Assembly (NCBI GenBank): GCA_032986305.1
Contig: GCA_032986305.1_3672.1
Source: a phage
Strand: one strand, 5' to 3'
Length of the DNA: 64,000 bases
Positions 1,491 through 56,850 of the stretch are shown in pieces; position 1 is the first letter of the stretch; each line of letters starts with the position of its first letter. The translations under genes and the position numbers were made by a program. The notes beneath the pieces are model-generated. The model ran no database searches, had not been told where the DNA came from, and worked only from the letters and a program-made list of their open reading frames with translations.

Positions 1491-2309
1491 TTGAGCAAGA
1501 AAGAGTCCAACGACAAATATTACACAAACCCTGAGTATGCAGAATATCTTGTTGGTAAAGTAAAAGACAAGTATGGGAATTGTGCATACGTTGAGCCTTC
1601 TGCTGGAAGGGGTTCTTTTTCAAAACTATTTTCAAAGATACTGTCGTACGATCTAGTACCAGATCCTGAATTTGAAGGACCAACACAGTGCATTCAGGCA
1701 AACTTCTTGGAGGTGCATCCCAAGGCAGATGTCTTCATAGGTAACCCACCATTTGGCAAGAATTCATCTTTAGCTTGCAAATTCTTTAACCATTGTGCAT
1801 CATTGCTAGAGCTTGGCGGGGCTATAGCCTTCATATTGCCACGGACATTTGAAAAAATATTTTTTGCAAACAAACTGGACATGTCTATGCACCTTGTCTA
1901 CAGCGAAAGGTGCCCTAAGAACTCGTTTTTACTTAATGGCAAACCTTACGACGTGCCATGTGTTTTCCAAATTTGGGAGAAAAAGGCGTGCAATAGGGAT
2001 CCTGTAGAGATTGGAGAGAATAAGTTATTTTCTTTTAGCACTCCAGATGACTACGACTTCTGTGTAAGACGTGTTGGGTATAATGCTGGAAAAGTATTGG
2101 GGGATGATGACCCAAAATCTGAAGAATCGACATATTTCATAAAATCTTTAGTTGACGGTGTTGACAGAGTGTTTGCCGAATGCTATTCTTCTTTTCAAGA
2201 AGAAGCAGGTAAGACTGCTGGAATGAAGAGTATAGGCAAGAAAGAACTACAATACATTTTGGAGACCCGGTATGATCAAAAGCATAGACTTGACCAAAGA
2301 ACTTACTGA
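1491..2309 (+). CDS. DNA N6-adenine methyltransferase (start uncertain, probably TTG 1491 after GGAGG)
   Basis: AdoMet motif EPSAGRGSF and catalytic motif IV GNPPFG; track ORF begins 1461 inside the terminator hairpin. Confidence 0.6.
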   Translation: MSKKESNDKYYTNPEYAEYLVGKVKDKYGNCAYVEPSAGRGSFSKLFSKILSYDLVPDPEFEGPTQCIQANFLEVHPKADVFIGNPPFGKNSSLACKFFNHCASLLELGGAIAFILPRTFEKIFFANKLDMSMHLVYSERCPKNSFLLNGKPYDVPCVFQIWEKKACNRDPVEIGENKLFSFSTPDDYDFCVRRVGYNAGKVLGDDDPKSEESTYFIKSLVDGVDRVFAECYSSFQEEAGKTAGMKSIGKKELQYILETRYDQKHRLDQRTY

Positions 2310-2730
2310 TGCAAAAGCTTTTGGTGAGACAGCGGTACAAAGAGGCCAGGCGATGGGACTGGCACTACCTTTCGTCTTAAAAGAGCACTTTACAGATTTT
2401 CAACTTATCAAAGGTGATAAGGGAATGCTTATCCTGGAGCATAAGTTGAGTAAGAAACGCTACAAAGTTGTTTTTAATTCTAAAGCCCCAACAAAACTTG
2501 GATTCAGAACTTACAATCTCAACCCATCCTATACTAAGGGTGTTGGAAGGGTAGAACAACAGCATTTCAGTGCTAGAGCTTCTTTAGCCCCTTTGATGCT
2601 AAATTTCTCAGGGGTGGCTTTAGGATACCTTGATAAGAAAAGAGTTCTTCATGTCCGTTTCACAGACTTTGTAACGCTTTTAGCTAACAACGAAGTTGAT
2701 GAAAAGGGACGTGTAAAAACAAACTTCTAA
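2272..2730 (+). CDS. hypothetical protein
   Basis: 152-aa ORF in co-directional operon. Confidence 0.4.
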   Translation: MIKSIDLTKELTDAKAFGETAVQRGQAMGLALPFVLKEHFTDFQLIKGDKGMLILEHKLSKKRYKVVFNSKAPTKLGFRTYNLNPSYTKGVGRVEQQHFSARASLAPLMLNFSGVALGYLDKKRVLHVRFTDFVTLLANNEVDEKGRVKTNF

Positions 2731-2745
2731 TAACGCATAGTATGA

Positions 2746-2949
2746 TTGGAGACCGCAATGACACTAAAGTTAACAATTACAGACAGCTTTTCAGAAAACT
2801 TTATCCCAGAAATGATGGGTAAGATGCGATCATTGCTTGATCAGATTGAGGAAGCTGTTTGGGAAGACGATGCTGTAGTGGCTAACGAGCTAGTAGATAA
2901 GTGTAAAAGTATTATTGATGCAGTTGAAGAATATCACGGAGGTTTTTGA
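2746..2949 (+). CDS. hypothetical protein
   Basis: 67-aa ORF; stop overlaps next start (ATGA). Confidence 0.4.
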   Translation: METAMTLKLTITDSFSENFIPEMMGKMRSLLDQIEEAVWEDDAVVANELVDKCKSIIDAVEEYHGGF

Positions 2950-3563
2950 TGGATATTATTGTTCTTAACGCCCCACCTAGCAGCGGCAAGGATCACATTG
3001 CAGATCTCTTGTTGGAAGCTATTCCTAACTCACACCACCGTGAGGTTAAGGAGATGCTCTTCAGTGTGGCAATTAAGGCAGCTGGTGTAACTCCTCAACT
3101 CTGGAATGCACTTTATGACCGCCACTACAAAGAAGAGCCTTGCCCTTTCTTAATGATAGACGGCAAGCATGTTTCTCCGCGAGAGTGGATGATCCATTGT
3201 AGTGAAAATCTGATTAAACCTATCTTTGGTGAAGATGCTTTCGGTAAGGCCGCAGTCACATCCTTGAAGAAAGATTTCCCTAAAGGTAAAGGGGTTGTTG
3301 TTTACTCCGATGGTGGATTCAAAGAGGAGCTGGCATGCCTTAGTGAGTACGCATACAGCACAGGTGGAGATCTGTTGTTGTTCCGTATTCACCGTGTCGG
3401 ATATGACTGGGGAAATGATTCCAGAACCTATCTAAGCCTGGAAAAGAACGGAATAAAAGGGATTGAGTTCGATGTTGTAAATCCTGAAGGTGCACCTTGG
3501 GAATGTGCATCGGAGATTGTGTGCAAGTATATTGATGCTAAAGAGGCCCAAGAAGAATGTTAA
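2949..3563 (+). CDS. deoxynucleoside monophosphate kinase-like protein
   Basis: N-terminal P-loop-like NAPPSSGKDHIAD resembling phage dNMP kinases (T4 gp1 type); SD GGAGG upstream. Confidence 0.5.
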   Translation: MDIIVLNAPPSSGKDHIADLLLEAIPNSHHREVKEMLFSVAIKAAGVTPQLWNALYDRHYKEEPCPFLMIDGKHVSPREWMIHCSENLIKPIFGEDAFGKAAVTSLKKDFPKGKGVVVYSDGGFKEELACLSEYAYSTGGDLLLFRIHRVGYDWGNDSRTYLSLEKNGIKGIEFDVVNPEGAPWECASEIVCKYIDAKEAQEEC

Positions 3564-4150
3564 TCGGAATTGATGTAGATTTGACACTGGTAGATTCAGG
3601 AACAGCATGGTGGGAGTGGTTGGAGCGTTTGTATGGTCCAGCCAGTAAGACAGTCGTTAAACCTTCTAATGGGCTGATGTATTACGATCTGTCAAAGTAT
3701 TGGCCTGATCGCCCCAAAGAAAACATCATAGGACCTTTTGATTTCTGGAGTGATCCGTTCCTCTACGACTTTCTTAAGCCTGAAGAGGGGGCTATTGAGG
3801 TTATGAAAGATTTGGTGGCTCGCGGTCACAAGCTCGCATTTATCTCGGTATGCAAGAAAGGTCACCTTGCATCTAAATCAAGGTTCTTAAAGCGCTGGAC
3901 CAGTGATTTTATGGATCTGGATGATCACACCCAGGGTCACGGCTTCTACGCCACACATTTCAAAGGTAATGTGGCTGTAGATGTTATAATTGATGACAGG
4001 CATGAATACCTGAACCAATTCGCTTCACGACCTGAAGTTATTAAAATCCTAAAAGACACGCCTTATGAGCAATTCGAAGAGTTAAAGGTCAGTGTTGACT
4101 ATACCGCTAATAGCTGGTATAAAATAGGAAAGTTTTTAGAAGGTATTTGA
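3557..4150 (+). CDS. HAD-superfamily phosphatase, 5'-deoxynucleotidase-like
   Basis: N-terminal HAD motif I IGIDVDLTL (DxDxT); context with nucleotide metabolism genes. Confidence 0.45.
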   Translation: MLIGIDVDLTLVDSGTAWWEWLERLYGPASKTVVKPSNGLMYYDLSKYWPDRPKENIIGPFDFWSDPFLYDFLKPEEGAIEVMKDLVARGHKLAFISVCKKGHLASKSRFLKRWTSDFMDLDDHTQGHGFYATHFKGNVAVDVIIDDRHEYLNQFASRPEVIKILKDTPYEQFEELKVSVDYTANSWYKIGKFLEGI

Positions 4151-4151
4151 A

Positions 4152-4352
4152 ATGGGCAGATGTTCTAAAGGTGGCGATCCTGTAGTCAGATACGGTGACT
4201 GGCTAGAGGTGTATGATCTGGGAGGTAAGCTGGTGTATGCCTCCAGGATCACCCAAGACATGTGCTCCGATATGTTCAACAGATACCTTGCATTTAAGGC
4301 TAACATAAACCCAGACGAAATTTCCAAAATTAAAACAAGGAGAGCTAAATAA
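4152..4352 (+). CDS. hypothetical protein
   Basis: 66-aa ORF, tight packing. Confidence 0.35.
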   Translation: MGRCSKGGDPVVRYGDWLEVYDLGGKLVYASRITQDMCSDMFNRYLAFKANINPDEISKIKTRRAK

Positions 4353-5335
4353 TGCTAAAACTGTGCACTGCAAAGATCATTGCTGACAGCATTTCCGAGA
4401 AAGGTAAGCGTATCACCACTTTTGAGCTAGAGTATCCTCGAATTATTCACTCAGAGCTTATGACACATCGAGTGTTCAGCCGAAACGCCATGTCTTCCCG
4501 TGCAGTGCCTGTAGGCAAGATGCTACAACAGATTGTGGAGAATCCGGCAATGCCAGTTCGCTTCGGTGTAAATAAGCGAGGGATGGAAGATGGTGGGAAG
4601 CACGATCAAAAGATCCGTGTAGAGTACACCGACATGGAGCTAACTCCTGAAGAGTTTTGGAAAGAAGCTGCAAAAAACGCCGCTTGGCATGCAGAGAAGT
4701 TCGCCCTTGCTGGTTACCATAAGCAAGTATGTAACCGCTTAGTGGAGCCGTTTCAGCGCATGAAAACAGTTGTAACAAGCACAGAGTGGAATAATTTCTT
4801 CCATCTCCGTTGTTGGCACGATGCTGACCCTACTATTCAGATGTTGGCTAATTGCATGTGGGAGGCTCTTATGAATAGCACTCCTGAAATCCTTAAACCG
4901 GGTCAATGGCACACTCCATATGTAGAGCACGTTTATTTGGACGGAGAGTTTAACTACGCTGTACGTGACACAGAAGGAAAGCTCTGTATTCTCGATACTA
5001 AAGAAGCTCTGTCTATTAGTGCTAGTTGCTGTGCACAAGTATCTTATCGAAATATTGACAGCACGTTTGAAAAGGCAGATAGTGTGGCTAAAAAATTGAT
5101 TGGTGGGGATCGTATTCATGCAAGCCCTTACGAGCACCAGGCAACACCTATGGATCACGATAACGCAATGGAACGTTTAAACTACTATCTATCTTCATGT
5201 GAAATCACACAAGACAGCTGTGTTTGGCAGGAAGGTGTAACCCATCAAGACCGTGATGGTAAATTCTGGTCTGCCAACTTTTGTGGGTGGGTTCAGCACA
5301 GACAACTGCTTAATAACCACTTTGTGAAAGGTTAA
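4352..5335 (+). CDS. thyX: flavin-dependent thymidylate synthase ThyX
   Basis: ThyX-type signature HR-x7-S-x-R (MTHRVFSRNAMSSRA); SD AAGGAG upstream. Confidence 0.6.
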   Translation: MLKLCTAKIIADSISEKGKRITTFELEYPRIIHSELMTHRVFSRNAMSSRAVPVGKMLQQIVENPAMPVRFGVNKRGMEDGGKHDQKIRVEYTDMELTPEEFWKEAAKNAAWHAEKFALAGYHKQVCNRLVEPFQRMKTVVTSTEWNNFFHLRCWHDADPTIQMLANCMWEALMNSTPEILKPGQWHTPYVEHVYLDGEFNYAVRDTEGKLCILDTKEALSISASCCAQVSYRNIDSTFEKADSVAKKLIGGDRIHASPYEHQATPMDHDNAMERLNYYLSSCEITQDSCVWQEGVTHQDRDGKFWSANFCGWVQHRQLLNNHFVKG

Positions 5336-5364
5336 TCCTATCACAGCGATAGGTAACTTTTGTG

Positions 5365-5393
5365 TTGACTAATAGTATCAGATAGTCTATAAT
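5365..5393 (+). promoter_or_regulatory. sigma70-type promoter (TTGACT-17-TATAAT) followed by 5' UTR hairpin 5397-5417
   Basis: Near-consensus -35/-10 with 17-bp spacer; stem GGCTCAC/GTGAGCC immediately downstream. Confidence 0.55.
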
Positions 5394-5433
5394 AATGGCT
5401 CACTTTGTTGGTGAGCCAGAAATGGAGACAGAT

Positions 5434-5895
5434 ATGAGTAATGTTATGATTCCTAAAAAGACATTTATTTCAGTTACTTTAGATTTCCTAGCTACCGTCC
5501 CTGGGTTTAACGTTCGCACACGAAACGGTCTCCGAGCTGCACTCTTCACCGTAGGGTTTGATTTAAAAAATATTGATGTTCTTCGTGGAAAAAACGTTAG
5601 ATGCAAAAATAAGCCAACCCATTATCGAAAGGCAGATGTATTTGCTGGTGTCATGCGTGCAGACTTTAGATACCCACAAATGTATAACGGTGTAGATATT
5701 TTAGATGTAGATAAAGCACCTGGTGAGGCAATGCTTGTTCAAGATCTTCCGTATGATATCTCTGTAGAGGATCGTGTTAATGTAAGAAAGTATACAAAAC
5801 AATCTGAAAAGGCTGAAGATATTCATATTGTTGATGAACCTTTCAATTTTGAAGATCTGCATCGCCTGGAAAAATTATTCGGTATTGAAAGCTAA
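5434..5895 (+). CDS. hypothetical protein
   Basis: ORF with SD GGAGACA 7 nt upstream of ATG 5434; track start 5395 lies at predicted TSS. Confidence 0.45.
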   Translation: MSNVMIPKKTFISVTLDFLATVPGFNVRTRNGLRAALFTVGFDLKNIDVLRGKNVRCKNKPTHYRKADVFAGVMRADFRYPQMYNGVDILDVDKAPGEAMLVQDLPYDISVEDRVNVRKYTKQSEKAEDIHIVDEPFNFEDLHRLEKLFGIES

Positions 5896-5905
5896 GGTGG
5901 TGAAG

Positions 5906-6136
5906 ATGAGTCATAACTCCAAGTGGAAGGATCTTGGTTTTGCAAGTCGGGCAGAATATGTTGGTTGGCTTTGGTTCAACGGCCTGACAAACGATATTAA
6001 AATGTATGATGATGTTTATTATGATGAGTATACAGGTAAAATTATAAATATCTCTGTAGAAGAGGATACCTTTATTCAGCAAGATACTGATACCTGCCTT
6101 GATAAATACGTTAATGAAGTGGAGGAAGCAAATTGA
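5906..6136 (+). CDS. hypothetical protein
   Basis: SD GGTGGTGAAG before ATG 5906. Confidence 0.4.
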   Translation: MSHNSKWKDLGFASRAEYVGWLWFNGLTNDIKMYDDVYYDEYTGKIINISVEEDTFIQQDTDTCLDKYVNEVEEAN

Positions 6137-8448
6137 TCACCAAGGTAATTAAAAGCAACGGATGTGAAGTGGCATTCGACCCAGAACGTTTAAATAAGGC
6201 AGCTATTTTCGGTGACGACGGTAACGGCAATTGGTCACACATTGCACTGGATGCATACAAACGACTGTATGATGGATGTACAACCAAAGAAGTTAACCAA
6301 GCTATCATAGACTCCTGTGTTAGCCGTAAAGACGAAGCACATTCCCGTATGGCTGGTCGTGTTCTTATTGGTCAGATTTATAAAGAGGCTTTTGGAGGGT
6401 TTACAAAGATCCCTTCCTTACCATCATTTTACAACGACATGGTTGAGAAAGGGTATTGGGAGGATATGGGTTATAGCTTTACCGAGCTAAATACTTTAGA
6501 CGCTGTTATTGACCACAGCAAAGATCTCGGTTACGGCTATGCAGTCCTTAAACAGTTTCGCGACAAATACGGGATCAAGGATACTCTTAAAGACACCCTG
6601 TTTGAATCTCCCCAGATGATGTTTATGGGGATAGCAATGGCTGTCATGAAGAATATGCCGAAAGAACGTCGTATCAACGATGTTGTAAAATTATACACTT
6701 ATCTGTCCGACTTAAAGATCAATGCTCCGACACCGTACTTAAACGGGCTGCGCACAGGTAAGACAGGGTATGCATCTTGTTGTGTAATAAAAGCGGATGA
6801 TACAGCAAAATCTATTGGTGTGGCACGTGAAGTTGCGTACACAATGACGGTTAACCAAGCAGGTATCGGCTACTATTTATCATCAAGATCTGCAGGCGAT
6901 GGTGTTCGTGGTAACACTATTAAACACATGGGTAAGATTCCATATTATCGAGGTATTGATGCTGGGGTTAAGGAGAACAGACAACAATCGCGTGGCGGTT
7001 CTGCAACAGTATCATTCCTTGCACTAGACCCGCAGATTGATGAGCTAATCCGTTTGAGAAACCCTATGACTGTTGCTTCAAAAAGAATCAACACCATGGA
7101 CTACTCTATAGGTATTAATAGGTCGTTTATCAACCGTGTGGCTAAGAATTTAGATTGGATGCTTGTTTCTTATAAGCACGCTCCTCAACTGCATGAAGGT
7201 ATCTTCACCATGTCTATGGAGGAGTTTGATGCAGAGGTTGATCGTATCGCTAAAGATGACAGTATTCCTAAAACATGGATCCGAGCTAGAGATCTTGCTG
7301 TTGAGCTGATCACGCAGCGTACCGAAGTGGGGAGGCTGTACGTATACTGGACAGATGAGATGAATAGACATACACCTTTTAAAGATGTGATCTACTCAAG
7401 TAACCTGTGTGCAGAAATAGCCCTCCCGACAAAAGGCTATTCAGATATGCGTAATATCTTCAAGTACGATGCTGATGATGGCGAGGTTGCATTGTGCTTC
7501 CTGTCATCTCTTGTAGCTGGAAGGGTTACCCCAGAGGAGTATGAGGATGTTGCATACTACACGGTGCTTATGATTGACAATGTTATGGAAATCATGACAT
7601 ATCCGTATGAAAATATGGAGAGCACTGTTAAAAAACGCAGATCCATCGGGGTTGGCCTTACCAATGTTGCACATTTTATTGCCAGCCACAAGGTTACTTA
7701 CGGATCTCCTGAAAGTAAACAGCTTGTTCACGATCTTGCAGAACTTCACAGCTACAGCTTGCATAAGGCAAGTTTACGGTTGGCAAAAGAGCGTGGTGTC
7801 TGCGAGTGGATGCATAAAACAAAATATCCAGAAGGTTGGTTACCAATCGACACCTATAACAAAGAGGTAGATAGCGTGGTGAAAGATCCTTCTCTTAAAC
7901 AGGATTGGGAAGGGTTACGTAAAGAAATCATTGAAAATGGTGGGCTACGTAATAGCGTTCTTGAAGCATATATGCCTAATGAAAGCTCTTCGCTGGCAAC
8001 AAACACCACTAATGGGGTTTATCCTGTCCGTGAGCACATTATCTTTAAAAAATCGCCACAAGGGCAGGTGCTGTTTATCGTTCCTGACTATGATGAGTTG
8101 AAAGAGTATTACACCTCGGCTTGGGACGTTGATACTAACGACATGATCGATATGTATGCTGTGATTCAAAAATTCACAGGTCAGGCAATCAGCGCGGATT
8201 TATACATAGACTACACCAAGTTGAAAGATGGTAAAATTTCAATGAAGGAGCAGCTAGGGTACCTTATCCGTGCCACTAAATTCGGGATGAAGACATGGTA
8301 TTATTTAAACTCTAGGGTTGGTGCTGGTGACTCCTTGGCAGAGGAACTTCATGCCAAGAAACAGGCTGAAGATGAAACCAGAAAGAACTACCCTTTGATT
8401 GCAGATAGTTCAGTTGAAGATCCGTATTGCGAAAGCTGTGCACTATAA
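6133..8448 (+). CDS. nrdA: ribonucleoside-diphosphate reductase large subunit NrdA (class Ia)
   Basis: ATP-cone N-terminus, motifs SNLCAEIALPT, NESSSLATNTTNG, C-terminal CESCAL; 771 aa; TTG start after GGAGGAAG. Confidence 0.9.
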   Translation: MITKVIKSNGCEVAFDPERLNKAAIFGDDGNGNWSHIALDAYKRLYDGCTTKEVNQAIIDSCVSRKDEAHSRMAGRVLIGQIYKEAFGGFTKIPSLPSFYNDMVEKGYWEDMGYSFTELNTLDAVIDHSKDLGYGYAVLKQFRDKYGIKDTLKDTLFESPQMMFMGIAMAVMKNMPKERRINDVVKLYTYLSDLKINAPTPYLNGLRTGKTGYASCCVIKADDTAKSIGVAREVAYTMTVNQAGIGYYLSSRSAGDGVRGNTIKHMGKIPYYRGIDAGVKENRQQSRGGSATVSFLALDPQIDELIRLRNPMTVASKRINTMDYSIGINRSFINRVAKNLDWMLVSYKHAPQLHEGIFTMSMEEFDAEVDRIAKDDSIPKTWIRARDLAVELITQRTEVGRLYVYWTDEMNRHTPFKDVIYSSNLCAEIALPTKGYSDMRNIFKYDADDGEVALCFLSSLVAGRVTPEEYEDVAYYTVLMIDNVMEIMTYPYENMESTVKKRRSIGVGLTNVAHFIASHKVTYGSPESKQLVHDLAELHSYSLHKASLRLAKERGVCEWMHKTKYPEGWLPIDTYNKEVDSVVKDPSLKQDWEGLRKEIIENGGLRNSVLEAYMPNESSSLATNTTNGVYPVREHIIFKKSPQGQVLFIVPDYDELKEYYTSAWDVDTNDMIDMYAVIQKFTGQAISADLYIDYTKLKDGKISMKEQLGYLIRATKFGMKTWYYLNSRVGAGDSLAEELHAKKQAEDETRKNYPLIADSSVEDPYCESCAL

Positions 8449-8454
8449 TTTTAA

Positions 8455-8476
8455 AGGGGCTTCGGCCCCATTTTAG
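8455..8476 (+). terminator. GC hairpin with UUCG tetraloop between nrdA and nrdB (terminator or attenuator)
   Basis: GGGGC-TTCG-GCCCC followed by ATTTTAG. Confidence 0.4.
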
Positions 8477-8486
8477 AGGTAGAATA

Positions 8487-9575
8487 ATGGCTGTATTTAA
8501 TGCTGAGAACACCGCTCATAAAACTGGTGACTATCCGCTGTTTCTGGGACAGCAAATGGGTATGTACGACTCTATCAACAAAAAATATCCACAACTGTTC
8601 GAACTGTACAAAAAACAAAAAGAACAAGACTGGGCAGAGGATGAAGTGGATTTGTCGCAATCTATTTCAGATTTTGTAACATGCTCCAAGTCAACTTATG
8701 ATGTGATGGTGCAGACCTTGATGTGGCAATGGGAGGCTGATAGCGTTGCGGCAAGATCGATCATCTGCCTCTTTTCACCATTCATCACTAATAGTGAGCT
8801 TTTCACTCTATTGATGAAACAGTCAGAGATTGAAGTTCTTCACGCGCTAACTTACTCAGAGATTGTTAGACAATGCCTCCCCAATGCCCGTGAGATTATA
8901 GAAGAGATTCAGGAAAACCAAAACGTTCTGAGCAGATCTGGCGTTATTGTCAAATACATGCAAGAGCTTGAGGTTATTGGTGCAAAATACCGACTGGATC
9001 CTTCTAGTGTTGAAGAAGATATTGTGCGGAAATGCATTCTTAGAGCGCTTTTTGCACTTTTAGCCCTGGAAAGTATTGAGTTTATTGCAAGTTTTGCATG
9101 CACTTTCGCAGTAGCTGAACAGGGTATTTTTGTTCAGGTGGCGCAGCTTGTTCAAAAAATCATGCTTGACGAAATGCTACATTCGAAAGGTGATTTTGCC
9201 ATCATTGATATCCTGCTTAATGATCCGGCATGGGAGAAAAGCTTCCTTGAGATAAAAGGGGAGTTAAAAGAGATTCTTGATGAAGTACGAACCAAAGAGT
9301 ACGGTTGGAGTGACTATATTTTCAGCGAAGGAAGAGCGATTATAGGTCTTAACTCACCATTGCTTAAAGAATGGGTTGACTATAACTGCTCACCGATTTA
9401 TGATTACTACGGCATCGACAAAGACTTTGTGCCGCCAACAAAGGACCCTCTACCGTTTATGCAGGTGTGGATGAAACCTTCATTGCAACAGACGGCGAAC
9501 CAAGAAATGTCGAACACTGACTACCGCGTCAACACAACTGTTAATGACGCTGAAGAAGAAATTTGGGAGTTTTAA
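8487..9575 (+). CDS. nrdB: ribonucleoside-diphosphate reductase small subunit NrdB
   Basis: Typical NrdB N-terminal region (WAEDEVDLSQSISDF) and length; SD GAGG before ATG 8487. Confidence 0.85.
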   Translation: MAVFNAENTAHKTGDYPLFLGQQMGMYDSINKKYPQLFELYKKQKEQDWAEDEVDLSQSISDFVTCSKSTYDVMVQTLMWQWEADSVAARSIICLFSPFITNSELFTLLMKQSEIEVLHALTYSEIVRQCLPNAREIIEEIQENQNVLSRSGVIVKYMQELEVIGAKYRLDPSSVEEDIVRKCILRALFALLALESIEFIASFACTFAVAEQGIFVQVAQLVQKIMLDEMLHSKGDFAIIDILLNDPAWEKSFLEIKGELKEILDEVRTKEYGWSDYIFSEGRAIIGLNSPLLKEWVDYNCSPIYDYYGIDKDFVPPTKDPLPFMQVWMKPSLQQTANQEMSNTDYRVNTTVNDAEEEIWEF

Positions 9576-9578
9576 TAC

Positions 9579-9857
9579 ATGAGCTGTGAAAAATCTTTTT
9601 TCTTTATTATTTACGGTAAAGATAACTGCCCACATTGTGTAAGAGCAAAAGAATTTGCAGTCAGTAAAGGTCTGCCTTTTGTATATAAGACACTTGGCGA
9701 GGGTTACACAAAAGAAGAGCTTATTGAGAAGTGCAGTCCAATCGTACCCAGAACGTTGCCGCAGATCTTCTTAGAAAGCAATCTTGAAAGTGCCCATATA
9801 GGCGGTGCCGACGATTTCATCTCTTTTGTTAAGAATGGTTTTGGAGAGAAAAAGTGA
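9579..9857 (+). CDS. glutaredoxin/NrdH-like redoxin
   Basis: 92 aa with CPHC active-site motif in thioredoxin-fold context, adjacent to RNR genes. Confidence 0.65.
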   Translation: MSCEKSFFFIIYGKDNCPHCVRAKEFAVSKGLPFVYKTLGEGYTKEELIEKCSPIVPRTLPQIFLESNLESAHIGGADDFISFVKNGFGEKK

Positions 9858-10714
9858 AAGTTGTAAAACGGGACGGTAGAGAAGAGGTCTATAACGGAAT
9901 TAAGGTGATCAAGGCGGCAGAGTCCGCCTTACTTGAGTCTGGACATACTGAAGAAGAAGCTTACCGGATCGCCTGCGCGGTTAATGAAGTTGTTGCTAAC
10001 AATCTACCAACCGACCAGTGCACGATCTCTGTAAAAAATATCCATATCCTTGTTGAAGACGCTCTTATGGATATGGGTTTAAAATGTGCAGCCAGAGAAT
10101 ACATCCAGTATAGGCAGACAAGAGATAATAACAGAGAGGCAGGTGGAAAACTGCTTGCAGATATTAGTGGCTTCTTGGATCGCACTTGTGATGAATTTAC
10201 AAAAGAAAACGCAAATAAGCCTACCAATCATGTACACACTCATCGTGACCTGCTTGCAGGCATCCTTAGCAAACACCTTGCATCAACACAGATCCTGCCA
10301 GACCGTGTCTCAGAAGAGCACAATAAAGGCTTCATCCATGTGCATGATCTTGACTACTTGATCAGTCCGTTAACAAACTGTTGTTTGGTAAATTATCCAG
10401 ATATGTTGGAAAACGGATTCAACATTGGTAACGCCCATGTCAGTAAGCCGAAGTCAATAGGGGTTGCAACAACAATCCTTAGCCAAATTTCTAGTGCAGT
10501 AGCTAGTGCTCAGTATGGGGGTCAGACTATGAGCCATATTGATCATTATCTGGCACAGTATGCTGAGGCGACCTATGAGAAGAATCTTAAATTTTGCCAG
10601 GAACACTGGTTGCCAGATGCTGAGACTGTTGCAATGCAAATGACAGATAAAGACGTATTTGACAGCATGCAGACTTTGCTCTATCAAATCAATACGTTAA
10701 CCTCTGTCAACGGT
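9854..10714 (+). CDS. nrdD: anaerobic ribonucleotide reductase NrdD, exon 1
   Basis: ATP-cone start MKVVKRDGREE..., conserved NCCLVNY; frame stops at TAA that begins intron-like sequence. Confidence 0.8.
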
Positions 10715-47760: not shown

Positions 47761-47777
47761 CTTAAGGTCTCCTGATA

Positions 47778-48098
47778 TTAATCGTCAAGTTCAAAATAGA
47801 TTTTAACAGCTTCATCAAAGATTGGAATCCCAATGTTGTTGATAAGCTGCCAAACTACCATATCTTTACCTGGATCTGGGAGAATGTCAACCTTTCTCCA
47901 TGCGCTGTATATCCAGTTCGGACCACCTTCTGCACTAACTGGCAGATTTTCACCAGCCTCCTGCAGATACTTATACAGCAAAAGATATTCTGGATACTCT
48001 AGAACACTGTCCTCTGTAGTATATAGCAGTTCACGGTATACTTTTAAGAACCCTGCTGGGGTAATGTTTTCAGTCTTCATTTGCCGCTTCTCCTGCAT
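47778..48098 (-). CDS. hypothetical protein
   Basis: 106 aa. Confidence 0.4.
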   Translation of the reverse strand: MQEKRQMKTENITPAGFLKVYRELLYTTEDSVLEYPEYLLLYKYLQEAGENLPVSAEGGPNWIYSAWRKVDILPDPGKDMVVWQLINNIGIPIFDEAVKIYFELDD

Positions 48099-48462: not shown

Positions 48463-48779
48463 GCTTCCTCGTCGTCTAAAGAGTTGAAGATTTCACCGAA
48501 GTATTCTAAGACTTCTAGCTCCCGTGTGGTGCAGAAAACACAGTCACCGTTGTCATCCTCGATAACGGCCTCTTTACCCAGCACATCTACTTCAAGTTTA
48601 TCGTTCAACAGGACAGCCCCTGTGTAAACTTTGTCGGCTGTGCAGTCCCGAAAAGCAGAGTCTTTCTCCAGATAGTCTGGCTTAACCTTGGCTTTAATTC
48701 GTTGGTATTGTTTGGTCATTGCTGTGGTCCCCTTTCGTTTTGATAGGGCCATTATATTAGGCCCCATCACTGTTGTCAA
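48459..48779 (-). CDS. hypothetical protein (tandem paralog of 48783..49037)
   Basis: Shared motifs DCT...Y and DDNGDCVFCT / DDEGDSVWCT. Confidence 0.4.
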   Translation of the reverse strand: MTTVMGPNIMALSKRKGTTAMTKQYQRIKAKVKPDYLEKDSAFRDCTADKVYTGAVLLNDKLEVDVLGKEAVIEDDNGDCVFCTTRELEVLEYFGEIFNSLDDEEA

Positions 48780-48782
48780 GTA

Positions 48783-49037
48783 TTAATGTTCAGGTTTTAC
48801 AAAAACTACTTCATTAACAGTGCACCAGACAGAGTCTCCTTCATCATCTTTAAAGGTAAGGCACTGTGCTGAGTTTTCCAGCTCATCAATCTCTTCTTGT
48901 GATAAAGGGGCCCCTTCTTCCAAAAGGGCTTTTACCAAAGGGTTCTCACAAAACTCTGCTTCATAAATAGTGCCAAGTGTGCAATCTTTAAAAGCTCGGT
49001 CGTTTGCAACGCATTCTGGTTTCAACATGATTTTCAT
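48783..49037 (-). CDS. hypothetical protein (tandem paralog)
   Basis: See 48459..48779. Confidence 0.4.
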   Translation of the reverse strand: MKIMLKPECVANDRAFKDCTLGTIYEAEFCENPLVKALLEEGAPLSQEEIDELENSAQCLTFKDDEGDSVWCTVNEVVFVKPEH

Positions 49038-49113
49038 CTTGGAGGTCTCCTTAATTATTTAACAATCAATACTCTGTTTGTGGGGAGTATCTTACATCTA
49101 ACCTTACTTCTTG

Positions 49114-49512
49114 TCAACGACTATTTTCAATCATCCACCAAGGATCAAGGTAGGTTTGTTGACTTTTTGCCCACTGGCAAACATCTTCGTACATCTGAAC
49201 TTCGTTTTCAGTCAGTTCACGAATAGGCTCATCTATACCCTCATTTTTGTGGTAATCCCAGTCGGCATCGATCTCCCACAACCACGACTTGTTGTCACCA
49301 CGCTTACGCACACAGAAGTCACCGGGACGGCCTGCCAATGCATTTAAGAACTCGTTCTCCGCTCGCTCCTGAAGAATACTAAGGAGCAAAACGTTGGAGC
49401 ATGACCGTAAAATATGCTTCAGCTCACAATCATCAATCTCAACTTCAATACGTTGTTTGACTGTGTGGGTACCTTTTACTAACATCCTACCTCCTCTAAA
49501 CGAACTCTGCAA
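49114..49512 (-). CDS. hypothetical protein
   Basis: 132 aa. Confidence 0.4.
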   Translation of the reverse strand: MQSSFRGGRMLVKGTHTVKQRIEVEIDDCELKHILRSCSNVLLLSILQERAENEFLNALAGRPGDFCVRKRGDNKSWLWEIDADWDYHKNEGIDEPIRELTENEVQMYEDVCQWAKSQQTYLDPWWMIENSR

Positions 49513-49690
49513 GAGTTGTGTTGTTCACTGCACCGCAGTAAATGGAGTATCCCAGCCCATTAGAGTGCAGAAACCACGGCGTGCCGAAATTATCTTTCAC
49601 GTAGACATCGCCGTTGTTTGTAAAGGGCCAATATTCTTCACCAAGGGTAAAATACCTATTCATATCTTCAGCAAGATACTTTACTTTCAT
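49496..49690 (-). CDS. hypothetical protein
   Basis: 64 aa. Confidence 0.35.
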   Translation of the reverse strand: MKVKYLAEDMNRYFTLGEEYWPFTNNGDVYVKDNFGTPWFLHSNGLGYSIYCGAVNNTTLAEFV

Positions 49691-49914
49691 AGGTCCTCTT
49701 CAACAACTACAAACTTGGCAAGCAAAGTGGTTCCGTAGATATGATACTCACCGTTTGCCAGGTGAGAGATATACCAGGCAACCCCTTCCTCGTCTTTAAT
49801 CATTTTGTTTGCACGAGCTTTATCGTAATAAACCTCGTAGGTCTTTCCTTCTTTAAAGAAGGACAGGTCTGTCATCTTTTCTTCTACAAAAGTAGCTTTA
49901 ACCAAAGTTGTCAT
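49687..49914 (-). CDS. hypothetical protein
   Basis: 75 aa. Confidence 0.4.
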   Translation of the reverse strand: MTTLVKATFVEEKMTDLSFFKEGKTYEVYYDKARANKMIKDEEGVAWYISHLANGEYHIYGTTLLAKFVVVEEDL

Positions 49915-50285
49915 TGATCGGTCTCCTTCTTGTTAAGTCTGAATACTGCAATAATAGCATTCCCAAGGTGCAGTGTCAAATCATTTCCAAGATACCACAA
50001 CATTCCACGGTCATCTTTAATGAAAGGGTAACAATCTGGTGCCTTCCAGACATTGTACACTTTCCCAACCTGAAAGAAATCAGGCCCTGTTGGGATTTTG
50101 GTGCCAGGCCACACTTGAGATACCTGAACACACTCCACCTGCATAATAACAGGAATGGTCATGGATGTAAATGTTTTTGTTGGCTCTACTACCATAAAAG
50201 TCTCCTCTTTGCTCAACAACACTTCCATGTGTTGATAGTTTACATTAGTGACAATCACCCCAGTTACGACCACACAAGTATTCAC
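49911..50285 (-). CDS. hypothetical protein
   Basis: 124 aa. Confidence 0.4.
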   Translation of the reverse strand: MNTCVVVTGVIVTNVNYQHMEVLLSKEETFMVVEPTKTFTSMTIPVIMQVECVQVSQVWPGTKIPTGPDFFQVGKVYNVWKAPDCYPFIKDDRGMLWYLGNDLTLHLGNAIIAVFRLNKKETDQ

Positions 50286-50601
50286 CTGTGATCTGGAACG
50301 GGACTCCCATCATTTTAGAAGCTTGCCAGAAGCAATGCACCACCATTTCACCCACAGGGCTCCAGATAAGTTCAAGCTTTCCGTCATCGTTCAGGATAGG
50401 ATCGTACACCGTGTTTCCGTCTCTGTCAACCACCTCGTTTCCGTTTTCATCCTTGCGTGCCTTTTTGTACTTATGACCGTCGAACACATGAAGTTTGGCT
50501 TCCTGCTCTGCCTTAAATGCTTCCAGTTCTTCAATTGTGTCGAAGGTGTACACAGTCTTATACTTAGGTGTGTCAGGGACCTGAAGTTGGTACTCATCCA
50601 A
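50245..50601 (-). CDS. hypothetical protein
   Basis: 118 aa. Confidence 0.4.
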   Translation of the reverse strand: MDEYQLQVPDTPKYKTVYTFDTIEELEAFKAEQEAKLHVFDGHKYKKARKDENGNEVVDRDGNTVYDPILNDDGKLELIWSPVGEMVVHCFWQASKMMGVPFQITGEYLCGRNWGDCH

Positions 50602-50868
50602 TAGTTCAGGTAGGTCGTTAAGCTACCCCGCACCATTACGTGCATAGCCATACGTTTTCACGTAGGATCGGACCATCTCATATTCCTATGATAAGCAACC
50701 ACAGGAATCCTCCCATTTCGACCGCACTTGCTGGTCTACTTCCTTTCGGAATGGCCTCTGAGCGTTCGCTCTTTTGAGCGCTTCGTTGCGGATTACCTTG
50801 CCATAAGGTTTAGGCTTCCCGCAGTTAAAGAGGTTATTCGACATAGATTACTCTATGAAGCCACAATG

Positions 50869-53298
50869 TTATTTATGGTAATAAATAATACGACGAACAC
50901 CTTCATCGTACCACCCACGCTTCACCATTTGGTGGTGCATGAGTATCCCAACTAAGTCACACAGCGATGCACCACCATTCTGTTGGTATGCATTAAGTAA
51001 AGAGTGTTTAGATCGGGTCCAGATGGCATGACCATCAAAAGAGTAGATAAACTTCTTACCCGTTGCTTCCCAGAATTTCTCCAGATCCTCTTTACGCCCC
51101 TTAAGACCAGGGTTGGCATCCCAAAGTGCATCGATTACCCTTTGTCCCAACTCTGGAGAGATGTCCAGCATATCTGCAACTTTATCTTTTTGTGCCCCGT
51201 ACATAACCCCATACGTGATAGGTTTACCGTCGTTACGGGACACCTCTCTGCCTGCTACTTTTGTATATGCCTCAGCATTGTTTTGGTGTGCGTCTCCGTT
51301 ACTTACAACATCGTAATACAGGCCGTTGTCGAACTCAAAGGCACCCCAAGCCCCGATAAGCTGCTCTAAGTTGGACCCGTCGATACCGATCTCAAAGTAT
51401 CCTGGAGGAACACCCCACAAGCTACGCATCTCTTTACCCATAACCACTTTAGGAGAGGGTTTAGGCATGTTTGCACAAATACTGTGTTTCTGTCTGGAAG
51501 TGTTTGTTAATCCAGAGCTTTTAGCAGGAAGCTTATGGTCAATCTTCAAGCGTGGGTGATTAAGAAGACCAGTATCAACCTTATCCTCCTTGATCGGATC
51601 AAGGACCGATCTGCGGTTTCGCAATGATAACCACAAGACGATATCTTTAGCCATCTCTCCGTTCAATTTTTCAAGATTCGGACATAGGTGTCCAAACGTA
51701 TCTTTCAGTTGCGGAGAAGTAATAAGTGCCCTAGCTTTTCTACGTATTTTCCTGAATACTTCCTTTTTAATCCTTTCGGAGTTAGGAAAGCTTCGGAACT
51801 TGTGCACAGTTGTCTGGAACTTAGCATCAGTTTTGTTCCAGAAGTTGATAATTAGGTCACAATACTCTGACTCCAAAAGCTCGTCCATATATGCATATAC
51901 TCGTGCATCAACATCTGCATCAGGTAAAGCTTTCTTCTTGCTGTCTTTAGTTACATCCTTAGTTCTCCACATTGTCGGAAGCCAGCCAGCACTGATCAGG
52001 TATCGCTTAATGTCGTCCTGGTTGCTGATTTTCATAGGTATCTTGCAGTCCGGCATTCGCTTCTGCTGTAGATCACTTATTGCCTGATCCATCAACTCTT
52101 TAGGTAAAGGGTGTGGTGTGGAAGTGCCCTTAATATAGCCTCTCAAGAAATCAGCCATCTTATCGGGGTCTTTGCATCCCATCTCTTCACACCATTTTAT
52201 CCCCATCTTGCTGACATCTCCTGTAGAGGTAAATGCTCTCTTAGGCGGGGCTTTGAACTCTAAAGCGCTCATGTCTACAGGATATCCAAGCTTATCTTTT
52301 AACCATTTCCAACCATTATTAGAGATTGTCCCGTCTTGGTTAAACGGCTTTTCAGGGAACTTGGGCCGCTGAGACATTGACAGCTCTTTTAAAGGCAGTT
52401 GTGGTTCAACACGATCAGCGATTTCTTTCATCCACGCATCGCAACGGTCACGTAAAGCAATAGCTCCATCTATGTCGAAATATACGCCCTGACGGGCCTG
52501 CAGCTCCATCAGGAAGTGCTGCAGCATACCTCGGCGCAATGCGTTCTTCCAGGTGATCTTCTTGAACCCTTTTGGCTTCTCTTTGGCAGGATCGTACATA
52601 AAGTTCTGCATGTCAGATTTGCCGTAGAATACACCTTTTGATTCCGCTACCAGCTCTTTCCAGAGCAACTCCTGGATGATAACGTCCTCGAATACACGAT
52701 CCACATACTTCCACAACGGAAGATCGCGCCAGTCATCAATTTGAACTTTCTGGTTACCAAGGGCGTAGCCCCATGCCATAAGGCCGTGAGGACCAACAGG
52801 CTGCATTTTCTTAGTAACCGGGTTGAATACAGCGTCCGGACAACCTTTTGGTAAAGGGCGATCAGGCCACAAGATTCGGCTCATCGCCAACGTATCAAAC
52901 AGGTTAACCTGGTGGTCGTTGATAGTCCCCATACATTTAGGATCACGGAACATATCAAAATGAATACCGGATAATCTCTCCATCAGCATAAAGTCATAAC
53001 TATAGCAGTTATGGCAGTTCAAAGCTGTTGGTGACCAGTCGGAATTGCCTGTAAGCCAACCTTCCAACTCCGAAAAATCTGCTATGCGAACTTCAAAATC
53101 TTTATAAAGAGCTTTCTTTGCCAGAATAAAGTTCTTAGCCTTCTCTATATCCTCCTCGGAGTAGTGTGTGCGGTCATTTAGAGGGAGGAACAGCATAAAA
53201 CGGTTCTTATTCAGCTCTTTAAACAGGCCGCAGTGATAATAAAGATCTGGGTCTTCCAAAAGCCCGGAGGCCTCAAAATCGAAGCTATACATGCTCAT
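50869..53298 (-). CDS. family A DNA polymerase (T7 gp5-like) with 3'-5' exonuclease domain
   Basis: Exo I FDFEASGL; motif A GIDGSNLEQL (cf. T7 DASGLELR); motif B RNDGKPITYGVMYG; SD AAGGAG. Confidence 0.75.
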   Translation of the reverse strand: MSMYSFDFEASGLLEDPDLYYHCGLFKELNKNRFMLFLPLNDRTHYSEEDIEKAKNFILAKKALYKDFEVRIADFSELEGWLTGNSDWSPTALNCHNCYSYDFMLMERLSGIHFDMFRDPKCMGTINDHQVNLFDTLAMSRILWPDRPLPKGCPDAVFNPVTKKMQPVGPHGLMAWGYALGNQKVQIDDWRDLPLWKYVDRVFEDVIIQELLWKELVAESKGVFYGKSDMQNFMYDPAKEKPKGFKKITWKNALRRGMLQHFLMELQARQGVYFDIDGAIALRDRCDAWMKEIADRVEPQLPLKELSMSQRPKFPEKPFNQDGTISNNGWKWLKDKLGYPVDMSALEFKAPPKRAFTSTGDVSKMGIKWCEEMGCKDPDKMADFLRGYIKGTSTPHPLPKELMDQAISDLQQKRMPDCKIPMKISNQDDIKRYLISAGWLPTMWRTKDVTKDSKKKALPDADVDARVYAYMDELLESEYCDLIINFWNKTDAKFQTTVHKFRSFPNSERIKKEVFRKIRRKARALITSPQLKDTFGHLCPNLEKLNGEMAKDIVLWLSLRNRRSVLDPIKEDKVDTGLLNHPRLKIDHKLPAKSSGLTNTSRQKHSICANMPKPSPKVVMGKEMRSLWGVPPGYFEIGIDGSNLEQLIGAWGAFEFDNGLYYDVVSNGDAHQNNAEAYTKVAGREVSRNDGKPITYGVMYGAQKDKVADMLDISPELGQRVIDALWDANPGLKGRKEDLEKFWEATGKKFIYSFDGHAIWTRSKHSLLNAYQQNGGASLCDLVGILMHHQMVKRGWYDEGVRRIIYYHK

Positions 53299-53356
53299 AA
53301 AGTGTTCTCCTTAAAGGGGAGGCGGTTGTACTACCCCTCCCACTCTTGGTTAAACA

Positions 53357-55435
53357 TTAAAAAGGCGTTTCATCATCCTCAAAACCAGGGACAGGGTCAG
53401 AGGACGGATCATCGTACTGGAGGTCTTCCTGCGTGTCAACAGGCTTAACAGTAGGAGTTACAACCTTATCAGCCACAACCTTGCCCATAGGTGTTTCTAC
53501 AACTGCATGCTCCTGATCCTCAAACATAGCCTGAGGTCTCCAAACAACCTCCCCACCTTCTCCATCTGTAAACATTTGCATTTCTTTGTCCCAGTACCAA
53601 TTACTGGCATCATGGAACTTACCTGTATGTGGGTCCATAACCAAAGTGTCTGCAATACCCAATGTTTTTGCTGGGCGGTTTTTAAGACCTACTAAACGGA
53701 CACGCCCACGAGAACGATCCACCATTTCTTCGGCCTCAACACCTATGACTACCCAACTCAACTGTTCAAGCCCAGCCGATCCTCGCAAATTCTCTTTTCG
53801 CACAGGATACCAGAAAGGTAATGGGTTACCATCCTTGTCCTTAGGAGGCACAATCTCTGTACGTTTGAGGTGAGCGATCACCAAGATAAACACGTTAAAC
53901 TGCTTACAAAACGCAGCCAGCTGAGTCATAGCCATGTCCAGTTCTTTTCGCTCATCTTTAACATTAAGCCCTGAAATTACCATAGACAGGTGATCCAGCA
54001 CAATATAGCGACAATGATACAGGCAGACCATTTGCTTAAGCTTGGTAATCAACTCGTCCACTGGAATAGACCCGAAATGTTTGAACACTTTGATTTTTCC
54101 AGCTTTTGCCCATGATTGGTGAATCTCTGCGTGTTCTTGATCAGTTAAAAACTGGCTAGGATCTTCAACAAACTCTTTAACATCAAACCCTAGCTGGTTT
54201 GCATACAAGGAGTTAATTGCTTCCTCTGGGTCCTCCTCAAGATGGATCATGCATAGACGATCATCCTCTTCATAGTCATCGGCCTTCGGGCATGTCGGGT
54301 CCATCAAGTATCTTGCAATACAATGTTCCAGTTTTTTAGCTACAGTTGTTTTACCGCCCCCTGATGGCCCTGTAAGCATTACGAGTGTCCCTTTGTGCAA
54401 GCCTTTTAGCATTTTTTGCAGTTTTGGAAACTCTGCGCTGATATCTACCCCGTTGGAAGTCTTTTTCCGCAAAGATTCGATAGAGAAGTCTTCTAAATCC
54501 GACACAGCATCCGGCACATACTTAACAGGATGCCGGAACATGTTTACAATATCTTCCAGCTTTTTAGCCTTCAGCATGTCACGGATATCTTTTACACCAT
54601 CAGGGTCGTTTACCTCGCCAGGATATTCCACGTGGTAAACGTTGTCAGCCATCAAAAATGCTGCGATATTATGTGTGGCTTCAACACCTTTGATAACGTG
54701 TTTTTGCTTCTCTACCTCGTTAGCTGCATCGTTGTCCATTGCAAGGACCACTGTTCCGTAGCTACGGATAAATTTCTCATTGTTTGCAAAAGTGTCTACT
54801 GCGTTTGCACATCCACAGTTAATTCCAACAAAAGGCAGGCAGGGTTTTCCTGCCAGATCACCCCCGTTGATAACTGCATCGATCCCGTCCTGAACCTCTT
54901 TAGCCCACTGTTTCACCTTTGCCGGGGCTTTAGCGTTGGTGAGAATCCCTTTTACTTGTATCTGATATGCAGCCTGCCATGCTGCAATAACATCACCTTC
55001 CCCCTCACAAACGTTAATCTGCTTACGGTTGTTGGAAGATGCACACAGCTTTTGACCAAACATCTGGGAGTTAGCCTTTACGATGCCTACTACAGACCAG
55101 TGTCCTTTTTGCTCTTTCGGCTTAGACCAATCACGCTTTTTGAAACCGGACAGATTCCCGTATCGGTCGTAATATGGGAAATATGTTGCAGTAACTGTCA
55201 CACCGTCTTCTTGGGATAATGCTGATCGCACACCAAAATATTGTGCAGCCATCAGACCGATATTCTGTTGTGGAACAGGGACAATTTTAGTATTTTCTAA
55301 AACAGTCTCTACAGTTTCAACCTCTTTTTCATCACGATAGTCTCGTTTCATACTGCCCCCACTTTTGTATCTTGTTGCAACCGGGTTAGGTTCTCCATAG
55401 CGGCTATATGCAGAGGATATAAACTTATTCCCCAT
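53357..55435 (-). CDS. primase-helicase (TOPRIM primase plus DnaB-like helicase, T7 gp4-like)
   Basis: TOPRIM CEGEGD and AMDNDAAN; Walker A LTGPSGGGKTT; C-terminus ...FEDDETPF; SD GAGGAG before ATG 55435. Confidence 0.8.
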   Translation of the reverse strand: MGNKFISSAYSRYGEPNPVATRYKSGGSMKRDYRDEKEVETVETVLENTKIVPVPQQNIGLMAAQYFGVRSALSQEDGVTVTATYFPYYDRYGNLSGFKKRDWSKPKEQKGHWSVVGIVKANSQMFGQKLCASSNNRKQINVCEGEGDVIAAWQAAYQIQVKGILTNAKAPAKVKQWAKEVQDGIDAVINGGDLAGKPCLPFVGINCGCANAVDTFANNEKFIRSYGTVVLAMDNDAANEVEKQKHVIKGVEATHNIAAFLMADNVYHVEYPGEVNDPDGVKDIRDMLKAKKLEDIVNMFRHPVKYVPDAVSDLEDFSIESLRKKTSNGVDISAEFPKLQKMLKGLHKGTLVMLTGPSGGGKTTVAKKLEHCIARYLMDPTCPKADDYEEDDRLCMIHLEEDPEEAINSLYANQLGFDVKEFVEDPSQFLTDQEHAEIHQSWAKAGKIKVFKHFGSIPVDELITKLKQMVCLYHCRYIVLDHLSMVISGLNVKDERKELDMAMTQLAAFCKQFNVFILVIAHLKRTEIVPPKDKDGNPLPFWYPVRKENLRGSAGLEQLSWVVIGVEAEEMVDRSRGRVRLVGLKNRPAKTLGIADTLVMDPHTGKFHDASNWYWDKEMQMFTDGEGGEVVWRPQAMFEDQEHAVVETPMGKVVADKVVTPTVKPVDTQEDLQYDDPSSDPVPGFEDDETPF

Positions 55436-56096
55436 CTTTAAACTCCTCAATCTCTTTCATCACTCTATCTCTTACAGCTTTTGCTTCTTCTAAAGTATTG
55501 TAAGTGCCATAGCTCTTTCTCTTTTTGCCGCTTTGCACTCTAACTCTCCACCTTCCAGAGCTCGGCACATAGAACACCCCTGTTACACCGCTAGTGTTTC
55601 TAACATCCAAATCTTGCGGGACGAATTTTCCCTTCTCCCATAACTTTCTGCATGCAATTGCATCTTCTTTTGTCTTAAAACACCCTAAGTATATGTCTCC
55701 AACAGATGCAATCCATCTTTTTATACCTCTAGGGTAGCGTACACCTCGACACCCTGAGGTATTGTTAATGCTCAGTTTGTCACTGTAGATCATGTCTCGT
55801 GCATTATCGCCCTGTGTACCTAGGACTAAGTTCTCTACCCTATCATCGCCTGCTATGTCGTTCTTGTGCCGCACAACAAGTCCTTCTGGTATCTCCCCGT
55901 AATGCATCTCCCAAACTATTCTATGCCTACGAACACTCCCAACACCTGACACATATATCACTCTATAGCCATTTTTATCTGTACCTGTGGCCTCCTCACC
56001 TGCGTAATGTATAACCCTGCCCCTTCCGGCTTTTGCAGTGTACGCCCAGAACAGTTTGCCGTCACTGTAGGTGAAATACTTGCTCCAGTCAACCAT
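55425..56096 (-). CDS. HNH homing endonuclease with two AP2 DNA-binding domains (free-standing)
   Basis: HNH_3 motif HRIVWEMHYGEIP...RHKN...DDRVENL; AP2-like SGCRGVRY... and SGVTGVFY... repeats. Confidence 0.75.
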   Translation of the reverse strand: MVDWSKYFTYSDGKLFWAYTAKAGRGRVIHYAGEEATGTDKNGYRVIYVSGVGSVRRHRIVWEMHYGEIPEGLVVRHKNDIAGDDRVENLVLGTQGDNARDMIYSDKLSINNTSGCRGVRYPRGIKRWIASVGDIYLGCFKTKEDAIACRKLWEKGKFVPQDLDVRNTSGVTGVFYVPSSGRWRVRVQSGKKRKSYGTYNTLEEAKAVRDRVMKEIEEFKDGE

Positions 56097-56850
56097 TGGC
56101 CCTTCTCCTTACTACAGGCTCGTTTGCTAAGAATACAGCTTTTGCCCAACCACGTGGTGTGAGGCTTCGAATCATCTTTGTTCTTGCACTCTTTCCACCC
56201 AGCTTGGCGTGTTGCATGGAATACCCGCTAACCGCGTCAACTATTTGCGGGACAGGTTTTGTGGCCGGGATTATAAATCCATTACCTATCCAGCCGCAAG
56301 TTATTTTTGGATAGGCATCGCGTGGAGCTATAAATTCAGGAAACCAAGGGTTTACATCATCCTCCGGTAAATACCCGCCATAGTCAGAAGGATGAAAACG
56401 GTAATCAGGTTTGCGCCACAGTGTGGACATAACACCCACAGGATTTTCTACATGCCACGGGCAATCGTAAATCTCTCCCAGCTCTTCAGCAACCCGAGCA
56501 TCCTTTACAGCATTAATTTGGATCATAGGGTCCTTATCCAGCTTTTTCTTAAAATGTGCAGCACCTGATACCGCTAAATGCGTGCACGGAGGAAATGCAA
56601 GAATAAAGTCTGGAGCTGGGTACATGCAAAAAGTTTCCTGAGGGAACCATGGGTCAATCCAATAATCCACATAGTGAATGTTGGGATGATCGGTTATCAC
56701 CTCTGCATAACTGCCGTGGTCAGCACCTTCTGCGTTAAAGCACAGGCACAGATATCCAGCTTTTGCCCAGTCAATGACTGCACCGCCAGATCCGTCAAAT
56801 AGACTCCACACAACACCTTTGTGGTAGTGTTCTTTATAGATAAATTTCAA
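56089..56850 (-). CDS. putative DNA methyltransferase (cytosine-5-like motifs); start probably TTG 56850
   Basis: Motif I-like SLFDGSGG, FPPC, ENPVG in correct order; track start at 56880 lies inside terminator hairpin. Confidence 0.4.
   Translation of the reverse strand: MKFIYKEHYHKGVVWSLFDGSGGAVIDWAKAGYLCLCFNAEGADHGSYAEVITDHPNIHYVDYWIDPWFPQETFCMYPAPDFILAFPPCTHLAVSGAAHFKKKLDKDPMIQINAVKDARVAEELGEIYDCPWHVENPVGVMSTLWRKPDYRFHPSDYGGYLPEDDVNPWFPEFIAPRDAYPKITCGWIGNGFIIPATKPVPQIVDAVSGYSMQHAKLGGKSARTKMIRSLTPRGWAKAVFLANEPVVRRRANG

Follow-up and report, generated by a model that had tools for sequence, protein, structure and literature searches.

Why would a lytic bacteriophage devote three genes to the methylation of DNA? 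The question is raised by a 64,000-nucleotide (nt) stretch of phage DNA (assembly GCA_032986305.1, contig GCA_032986305.1_3672.1; the window in what follows), which encodes two proteins with the motifs of N6-adenine methyltransferases, A (positions 1491 to 2309, plus strand) and B (17583 to 18116, plus strand), and one with the motifs of cytosine-5 (C5) methyltransferases, C (56089 to 56850, minus strand). A preliminary description of this DNA had proposed that the three genes provide extensive self-methylation as a protection against host restriction or, alternatively, epigenetic control. The answer that we consider quite likely is that A, B, and C are core orphan methyltransferases, each of which would write a short-motif mark on phage DNA, with a narrow benefit and at the cost of tripping retrons.

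The window comes from a Vequintavirus (Vequintavirinae), an rV5-like lytic myophage of Escherichia coli. Megablast searches with both ends of the window matched more than 100 rV5-like phages, including members of the BASEL collection, with a nucleotide identity of ~95–97% across most of the query (~96–97% for the BASEL phages). The BASEL relatives matched are HeinrichReichert (Bas58), EmilHeitz (Bas49), RudolfGeigy (Bas52), and WalterGehring (Bas51, MZ501111), and the gene order of Bas58 is collinear with that of the window, which contains nucleotide-metabolism and replication genes, a long series of small early genes, and rIIA/rIIB.

All three methyltransferase open reading frames (ORFs) were confirmed at the positions first given for them. 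The placing of A and B in the N6-adenine type on the strength of NPPF and NPPY was borne out by matches to PHROG families and by motifs, and for B also by data from Bas51, as was that of C in the cytosine-5 type, although its strand, the minus strand, had been left unstated. Three is the right count here, because a six-frame motif scan of the window found no further (D/N/S)PP(Y/F/W/H) gene; the collinear annotation of Bas58 shows the same three methyltransferases. Since none of A, B, and C reaches a Pfam gathering threshold or an NCBIfam cut-off, and both single-sequence and profile searches against PDB sequences returned nothing significant, motifs alone would be thin evidence, and the identification rests instead on phage-family profiles, predicted folds, and published experiments. 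The resemblances go well past anything that chance would produce. Homologues number from hundreds to thousands for each gene, and each is present at an identity of at least 90% in about 117–121 phage records. The GenBank records of the BASEL phages already name all three (two as “putative N6 adenine methyltransferase” and one as “Dcm-like C5 cytosine methyltransferase”); between annotation and two experimental papers, the content was known beforehand, and the observation is correct but ordinary.

B is a 177-residue N6-adenine DNA methyltransferase that starts with ATG, carries YVTP followed further on by TNPPY, and matches phrog_799 (E = 5.7e-67). With T117A as the sole substitution, it is identical at 176 of 177 positions to bas51_0176 of Bas51, which has the same length and occupies the same position after a ClpP-like gene. 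Mutants of Bas51 that evade the retrons Asa1 and Squ1 were isolated by Nakamura et al. (2025), and re-engineering of D69G, D79G, and T83P in Bas51 abolished defence, with wild-type plaquing when no retron was present (PMC12548924). The residues concerned, D69, D79, and T83 (the last adjoining NPPY), are present in B, whereas in A their places are taken by Q, A, and I, and the published enzyme is therefore the orthologue of B. Nanopore sequencing counted 1405 methylated adenines at GATC for wild-type Bas51 versus 35 for T83P, the host being the dam+ strain MG1655 (PMC12548924). Because the T83P mutant loses nearly all of the mark on a dam+ host, the GATC mark of the virion is written by the phage enzyme and not by host Dam. 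The Bas51 enzyme is moreover toxic upon expression in E. coli and triggers both Asa1 and Squ1 (PMC12548924), and ClaI digests suggest methylation of the Dam type in the related phage CB7. By analogy with its 99%-identical Bas51 orthologue, whose activity was measured, B is predicted to make Gm6ATC, a task in which host Dam is no substitute. GATC occurs at 337 sites in the window (observed/expected, 1.04) and is not avoided.

The product, Gm6ATC, and the solitary state of the B orthologue are shared with the alpha-class enzymes E. coli Dam and T4 Dam (PF02086). These are proteins of ~260–280 residues with a motif order other than that of B, in which YVTP precedes NPPY within a total of 177 residues. 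The Pfam hits reported for B at E ≤ 1 include no PF02086 match. The phage “Dam” families PF05869 and TIGR01712 (~165–170 residues) are close to B in size and match it weakly and locally around NPPY, with scores well under their cut-offs (19.1 versus 28.1 bits and 16.6 versus 97 bits, respectively). As judged from its sequence, B would be Dam-like in action and yet stands outside both the alpha-class Dam family and the small phage Dam families. The orthologue of a “putative glycosidase” of Bas51 (19348 to 19872, plus strand) lies five genes downstream of B; its product has no significant Pfam match (best, WbqC, E = 0.055), and in Bas51 the mutation R87* in this gene helps the phage to evade retron Asa1 (PMC12548924).

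C is a compact, “Dcm-like” C5-cytosine DNA methyltransferase of 253 residues, which starts with TTG downstream of an AGGAG and carries FDGSGG (motif I), FPPC with the catalytic Cys89 (motif IV), and ENP with Glu135 (motif VI). All 37 aligned homologues preserve the PPC and ENP motifs unchanged, and C matches phrog_757, “DNA methyltransferase” (E = 4.2e-87). The Pfam scan gave no PF00145 hit for C itself; two members of its family do score above the PF00145 cut-off of 22 (P0053, 24.7 bits; P0071, 28.5 bits), over motifs I to IV only. The fold of C is that of C5 methyltransferases, and its predicted structure resembles DNMT3A/B, as does that of the enzyme of phage K42; on this model, C is a minimal C5 enzyme whose target-recognition region is small, as in DNMT3. 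The Dcm-like enzyme of K42, 236 residues long, places 5-methylcytosine (5mC) in CCWGG and sets off retron Ec86 (bioRxiv 10.1101/2023.08.16.553469), and its C82, E128, and K175 align with C89, E135, and K182 of C. With the Dcm-like enzyme of Bas06 (KarlJaspers), C is 54% identical over 235 residues. The three proteins belong to a common compact family (~220–260 residues), in which C differs from the K42/Bas06 enzyme by an N-terminal extension of 9 residues and by a divergent loop after GNGF. Most likely, C makes 5mC at CCWGG, as shown for the 54%-identical member of its family.

A gene for an HNH/AP2-type homing endonuclease (55425 to 56096, minus strand; phrog_99, E = 6.5e-52) separates C from the primase/helicase gene, with the final 8 nt of C lying inside it. 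It is found beside C in Bas58 and Bas49 and is absent from Bas51 and Bas52, and the last few residues of C vary with its presence.

A is a 272-residue protein for which PHROG matches, motifs, and predicted fold point to the gamma class (M.TaqI-like) of N6-adenine methyltransferases. It starts with TTG, 4 nt downstream of a GGAGG Shine-Dalgarno sequence, and its motifs come in the order X-I-IV (DKYYTNP, EPSAGRGSF, GNPPFG), followed by a compact C-terminal domain; the residues of motifs I and IV are invariant in 38 aligned sequences. A matches phrog_5172 (E = 6.8e-129) and phrog_799, “DNA methyltransferase” (E = 3.9e-13); it has no NCBIfam hit, and its Pfam matches are sub-threshold (Eco57I, 16.3 versus 25.3 bits; MTS, 15 versus 23 bits). 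In the structure model (predicted local distance difference test, pLDDT, 91.8), a Rossmann catalytic domain precedes a target-recognition domain at the C terminus, and 228–254 residues could be aligned with M.TaqI, M.BseCI, CamA, and the methyltransferase part of MmeI. A shares the motifs and the two-domain fold of these gamma-class DNA enzymes; it differs from them in its length (272 residues versus 382–751 in the matched chains), in its much smaller recognition domain, in its low identity to them (15–18%), and in having no partner nuclease. In both fold and motifs, A corresponds to a gamma-class N6-adenine DNA methyltransferase whose target-recognition domain is small.

Two homologues of A, ~43% identical to it, were found on metagenomic contigs of 230–250 kb, which are rich in unannotated genes and on which ankyrin, ART-PolyVal, patatin, and RCC1 domains occur. 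In appearance, these contigs are closer to jumbo phages or giant viruses than to bacterial restriction-modification (RM) loci; their gene content, inspected for hints of the target of A, included no restriction genes. The idea that A is one part of a split or frameshifted gene was also considered, on the grounds that the ORF at 2272 to 2730 (plus strand; 152 residues) overlaps the end of A by 38 nt, that it is labelled “N6 methyltransferase” in phage nom, and that the phrog_5172 profile is longer than A. It was rejected, as this ORF matches a family of its own, phrog_9938, from end to end (152/152) and has no Pfam hit; some GenBank records misannotate it as a methyltransferase.

As for the target of A, GTAC is a candidate, because Bas51 carries N6-methyladenine (6mA) at GTAC independently of its B orthologue. 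Outright assignment of this mark to A was rejected, since an accessory PF01555 enzyme of Bas51 could equally write it. Site avoidance did not discriminate between possible targets (observed/expected, 1.04 for GATC, 0.67 for GTAC, and 0.57–1.13 for other palindromes). The accessory gene encodes a beta-class N6/N4 methyltransferase of 441 residues (PF01555, E = 4e-42; in NCBIfam, sub-threshold generic adenine-methyltransferase matches only) and is present at an identity of at least 90% in 88 phage records. In Bas51 and Bas52 (bas51_0070, bas52_0070), it sits between the orthologues of the ORFs at 58158 to 58499 and 57795 to 58097. It is cleanly absent from Bas58 and from the window, where an empty slot is left at 58098 to 58157 (minus strand), the exact limits of the junction being two start codons, that of the accessory gene and that of the next gene (ATG to ATG). 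In Bas49 the accessory gene is broken or shortened, with 344 residues annotated and a tblastn match in two pieces.

Purifying selection on the three genes is strong, and all of them are conserved throughout the genus. Against the BASEL and Danish relatives, the ratio of nonsynonymous to synonymous substitution rates (dN/dS) is 0.035–0.041 for A, 0.028–0.040 for B, and 0.008–0.037 for C, about the same as for the neighboring exonuclease, ClpP-like, and helicase genes (0.000–0.038), and both A and C keep their TTG starts in the relatives. That A, B, and C should be inactive relics or selfish cargo devoid of activity, as their failure to pass any curated Pfam or NCBIfam threshold might be taken to mean, is very hard to believe in the face of such ratios (0.008–0.041 overall) and of invariant catalytic motifs; for B, this idea is already refuted by the activity of a 99%-identical copy.

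Inspection of the neighboring genes found no cognate restriction endonuclease gene next to A (flanked by an exonuclease gene and an ORF with no assigned function), B (a ClpP-like gene and an ORF with no assigned function), or C (the homing endonuclease gene, the primase/helicase gene, and ORFs with no assigned function). All three are solitary, or “orphan,” methyltransferase genes. Three such enzymes in one genome, together with the 337 GATC, 130 GTAC, and 121 CCWGG sites in the 64 kb, fit the classical view of phage methyltransferases as anti-restriction devices (bioRxiv 10.1101/2023.08.16.553469), according to which they would protect the genome from host restriction in general. However, Vequintavirinae carrying these same genes were susceptible to all six RM systems tested, namely EcoKI, EcoCFT_I, EcoRI, EcoRV, EcoCFT_II, and EcoP1_I, and Maffei et al. 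(2021; PMC8594841) describe them as “exceptionally susceptible” phages that appear to “lack any effective protection.” In addition, marks on short motifs mask overlapping sites only. A broad shield is therefore quite improbable. The self-methylation put forward in the preliminary description is supported by the GATC data from Bas51 (with B identical to its orthologue at 176 of 177 residues) and by the 5mC at CCWGG of the 54%-identical relative of C; the “extensive” protection that it was supposed to confer does not agree with the restriction results. None of the six systems is known to recognize GATC, CCWGG, or GTAC, so that the marks may still afford a narrow protection; given the susceptibility to all six, any such protection would be limited to sites that overlap GATC, CCWGG, or the target of A. 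The paper on the rV5 genome contains no methylation or restriction data, and other papers on Vequintavirinae only repeat annotations.

The second role proposed at the outset, epigenetic control of phage replication, packaging, or gene expression, has a parallel in Dam, which controls the packaging of P1. The strict conservation of A, B, and C under purifying selection and their location inside nucleotide-metabolism and replication gene blocks would suit such a role. Yet Bas51 with a dead B orthologue reaches wild-type plaque counts when no retron is present, and no regulatory site was found in the window. We found no evidence in support of this role and hold it to be as improbable as the broad shield.

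If A, B, and C are core orphan methyltransferases, each would mark the rapidly replicating phage DNA as well as whatever other DNA the infected cell contains. B and C would copy the “self” marks of E. coli, those of Dam and Dcm, onto DNA whose replication outpaces the host enzymes, and A would add a third mark. The benefit would be a narrow shielding from nucleases that cut the unmethylated forms of these motifs and not a general anti-restriction shield. The cost would come from the same activities, which methylate the multicopy single-stranded DNA (msDNA) of retrons and set off abortive infection, as shown for the B orthologue and for the 54%-identical relative of C. Because retrons are triggered by them, the marks are also a liability.

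Several points weigh against this picture. The methylation measurements come from relatives (Bas51 and K42), and the only systematic restriction data show a high susceptibility of Vequintavirinae (PMC8594841). The specificity of C is extrapolated over a sequence divergence of 46%, and a second lysine of the K42 enzyme, K176, is replaced by Ile in C. As to A, it passes no curated family threshold in Pfam or NCBIfam, no restriction genes were seen beside its homologues on the two long metagenomic contigs, and the best fold matches of its catalytic domain are RNA N6-methyladenosine (m6A) methyltransferases. Together with one homologue of A that passes the Pfam threshold for RrnaAD, these matches raise the alternative that A is a phage RNA N6-adenosine methyltransferase with a METTL5/Erm-like core, whose substrates would be host rRNA or the tRNAs of host or phage; the 6mA at GTAC in Bas51 would then be the work of the accessory beta-class enzyme. 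The matches to RNA enzymes, however, span only ~150 residues of the Rossmann domain; those that also align the C-terminal domain (228–254 residues) are exclusively to the DNA enzymes M.BseCI, MmeI, CamA, and M.TaqI. Moreover, the YYTxP motif X of A is typical of DNA N6 methyltransferases, and the annotation of its phage family (phrog_799) refers to DNA methyltransferases. We regard an RNA substrate as unlikely, though less so than the two alternative roles weighed above.

As a discovery, the presence of these genes carries little weight, given that all three are named in the BASEL records, that the orthologue of B has been characterized, and that C belongs to a characterized family. The predicted methylome (6mA at GATC, probably 5mC at CCWGG, and one more mark) is of use in predicting which defences the phage would trip, among them retrons that respond to methylation of their msDNA, for example Asa1, Squ1, and Ec86. 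The phage is also predicted not to escape common restriction systems, and both predictions bear on the choice of phages for therapy. Finally, this phage and Bas58, being naturally devoid of the accessory methyltransferase, offer a clean way to assign the Bas51-type GTAC methylation and the target of A.

A GC-rich, terminator-like hairpin lies 18–21 nt ahead of each of the three methyltransferase genes. Upstream of A, an intrinsic-terminator-like hairpin with a T-tract (1453 to 1472, plus strand) has 8 pairs, 6 of them GC, ends 18 nt before the TTG, and is the best terminator-like hit in positions 1 to 20000. Between the ClpP-like gene and B, the hairpin AAAGCCCTC-TTCG-GAGGGCTTT (17543 to 17564, plus strand), 18 nt upstream of the ATG, was read from the sequence; it is not listed by the terminator scanner, probably since part of its T run falls within the stem. 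Upstream of C, a strong terminator-like hairpin with an 11-bp stem and TTTTT (56872 to 56897, minus strand), 21 nt from the TTG, is the best hit in positions 44001 to 64000. It is itself preceded by a sigma-70-like promoter match, TTGACA-17-TACAAT (56918 to 56946, minus strand; 11/12, a consensus match only), giving the order promoter, hairpin, gene. The hairpins, along with the TTG starts, may throttle the expression of toxic enzymes; they could also simply mirror the many terminators of the genome.

B is followed by an ORF of 94 residues (18113 to 18397, plus strand; phrog_12158), which overlaps it by 4 nt (ATGA). Dozens of GenBank records (MG0656xx) labelled “Campylobacter phage,” with C. 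jejuni as host, are 96–99% identical to the present E. coli Vequintavirus and are probably mislabelled or contaminant assemblies.

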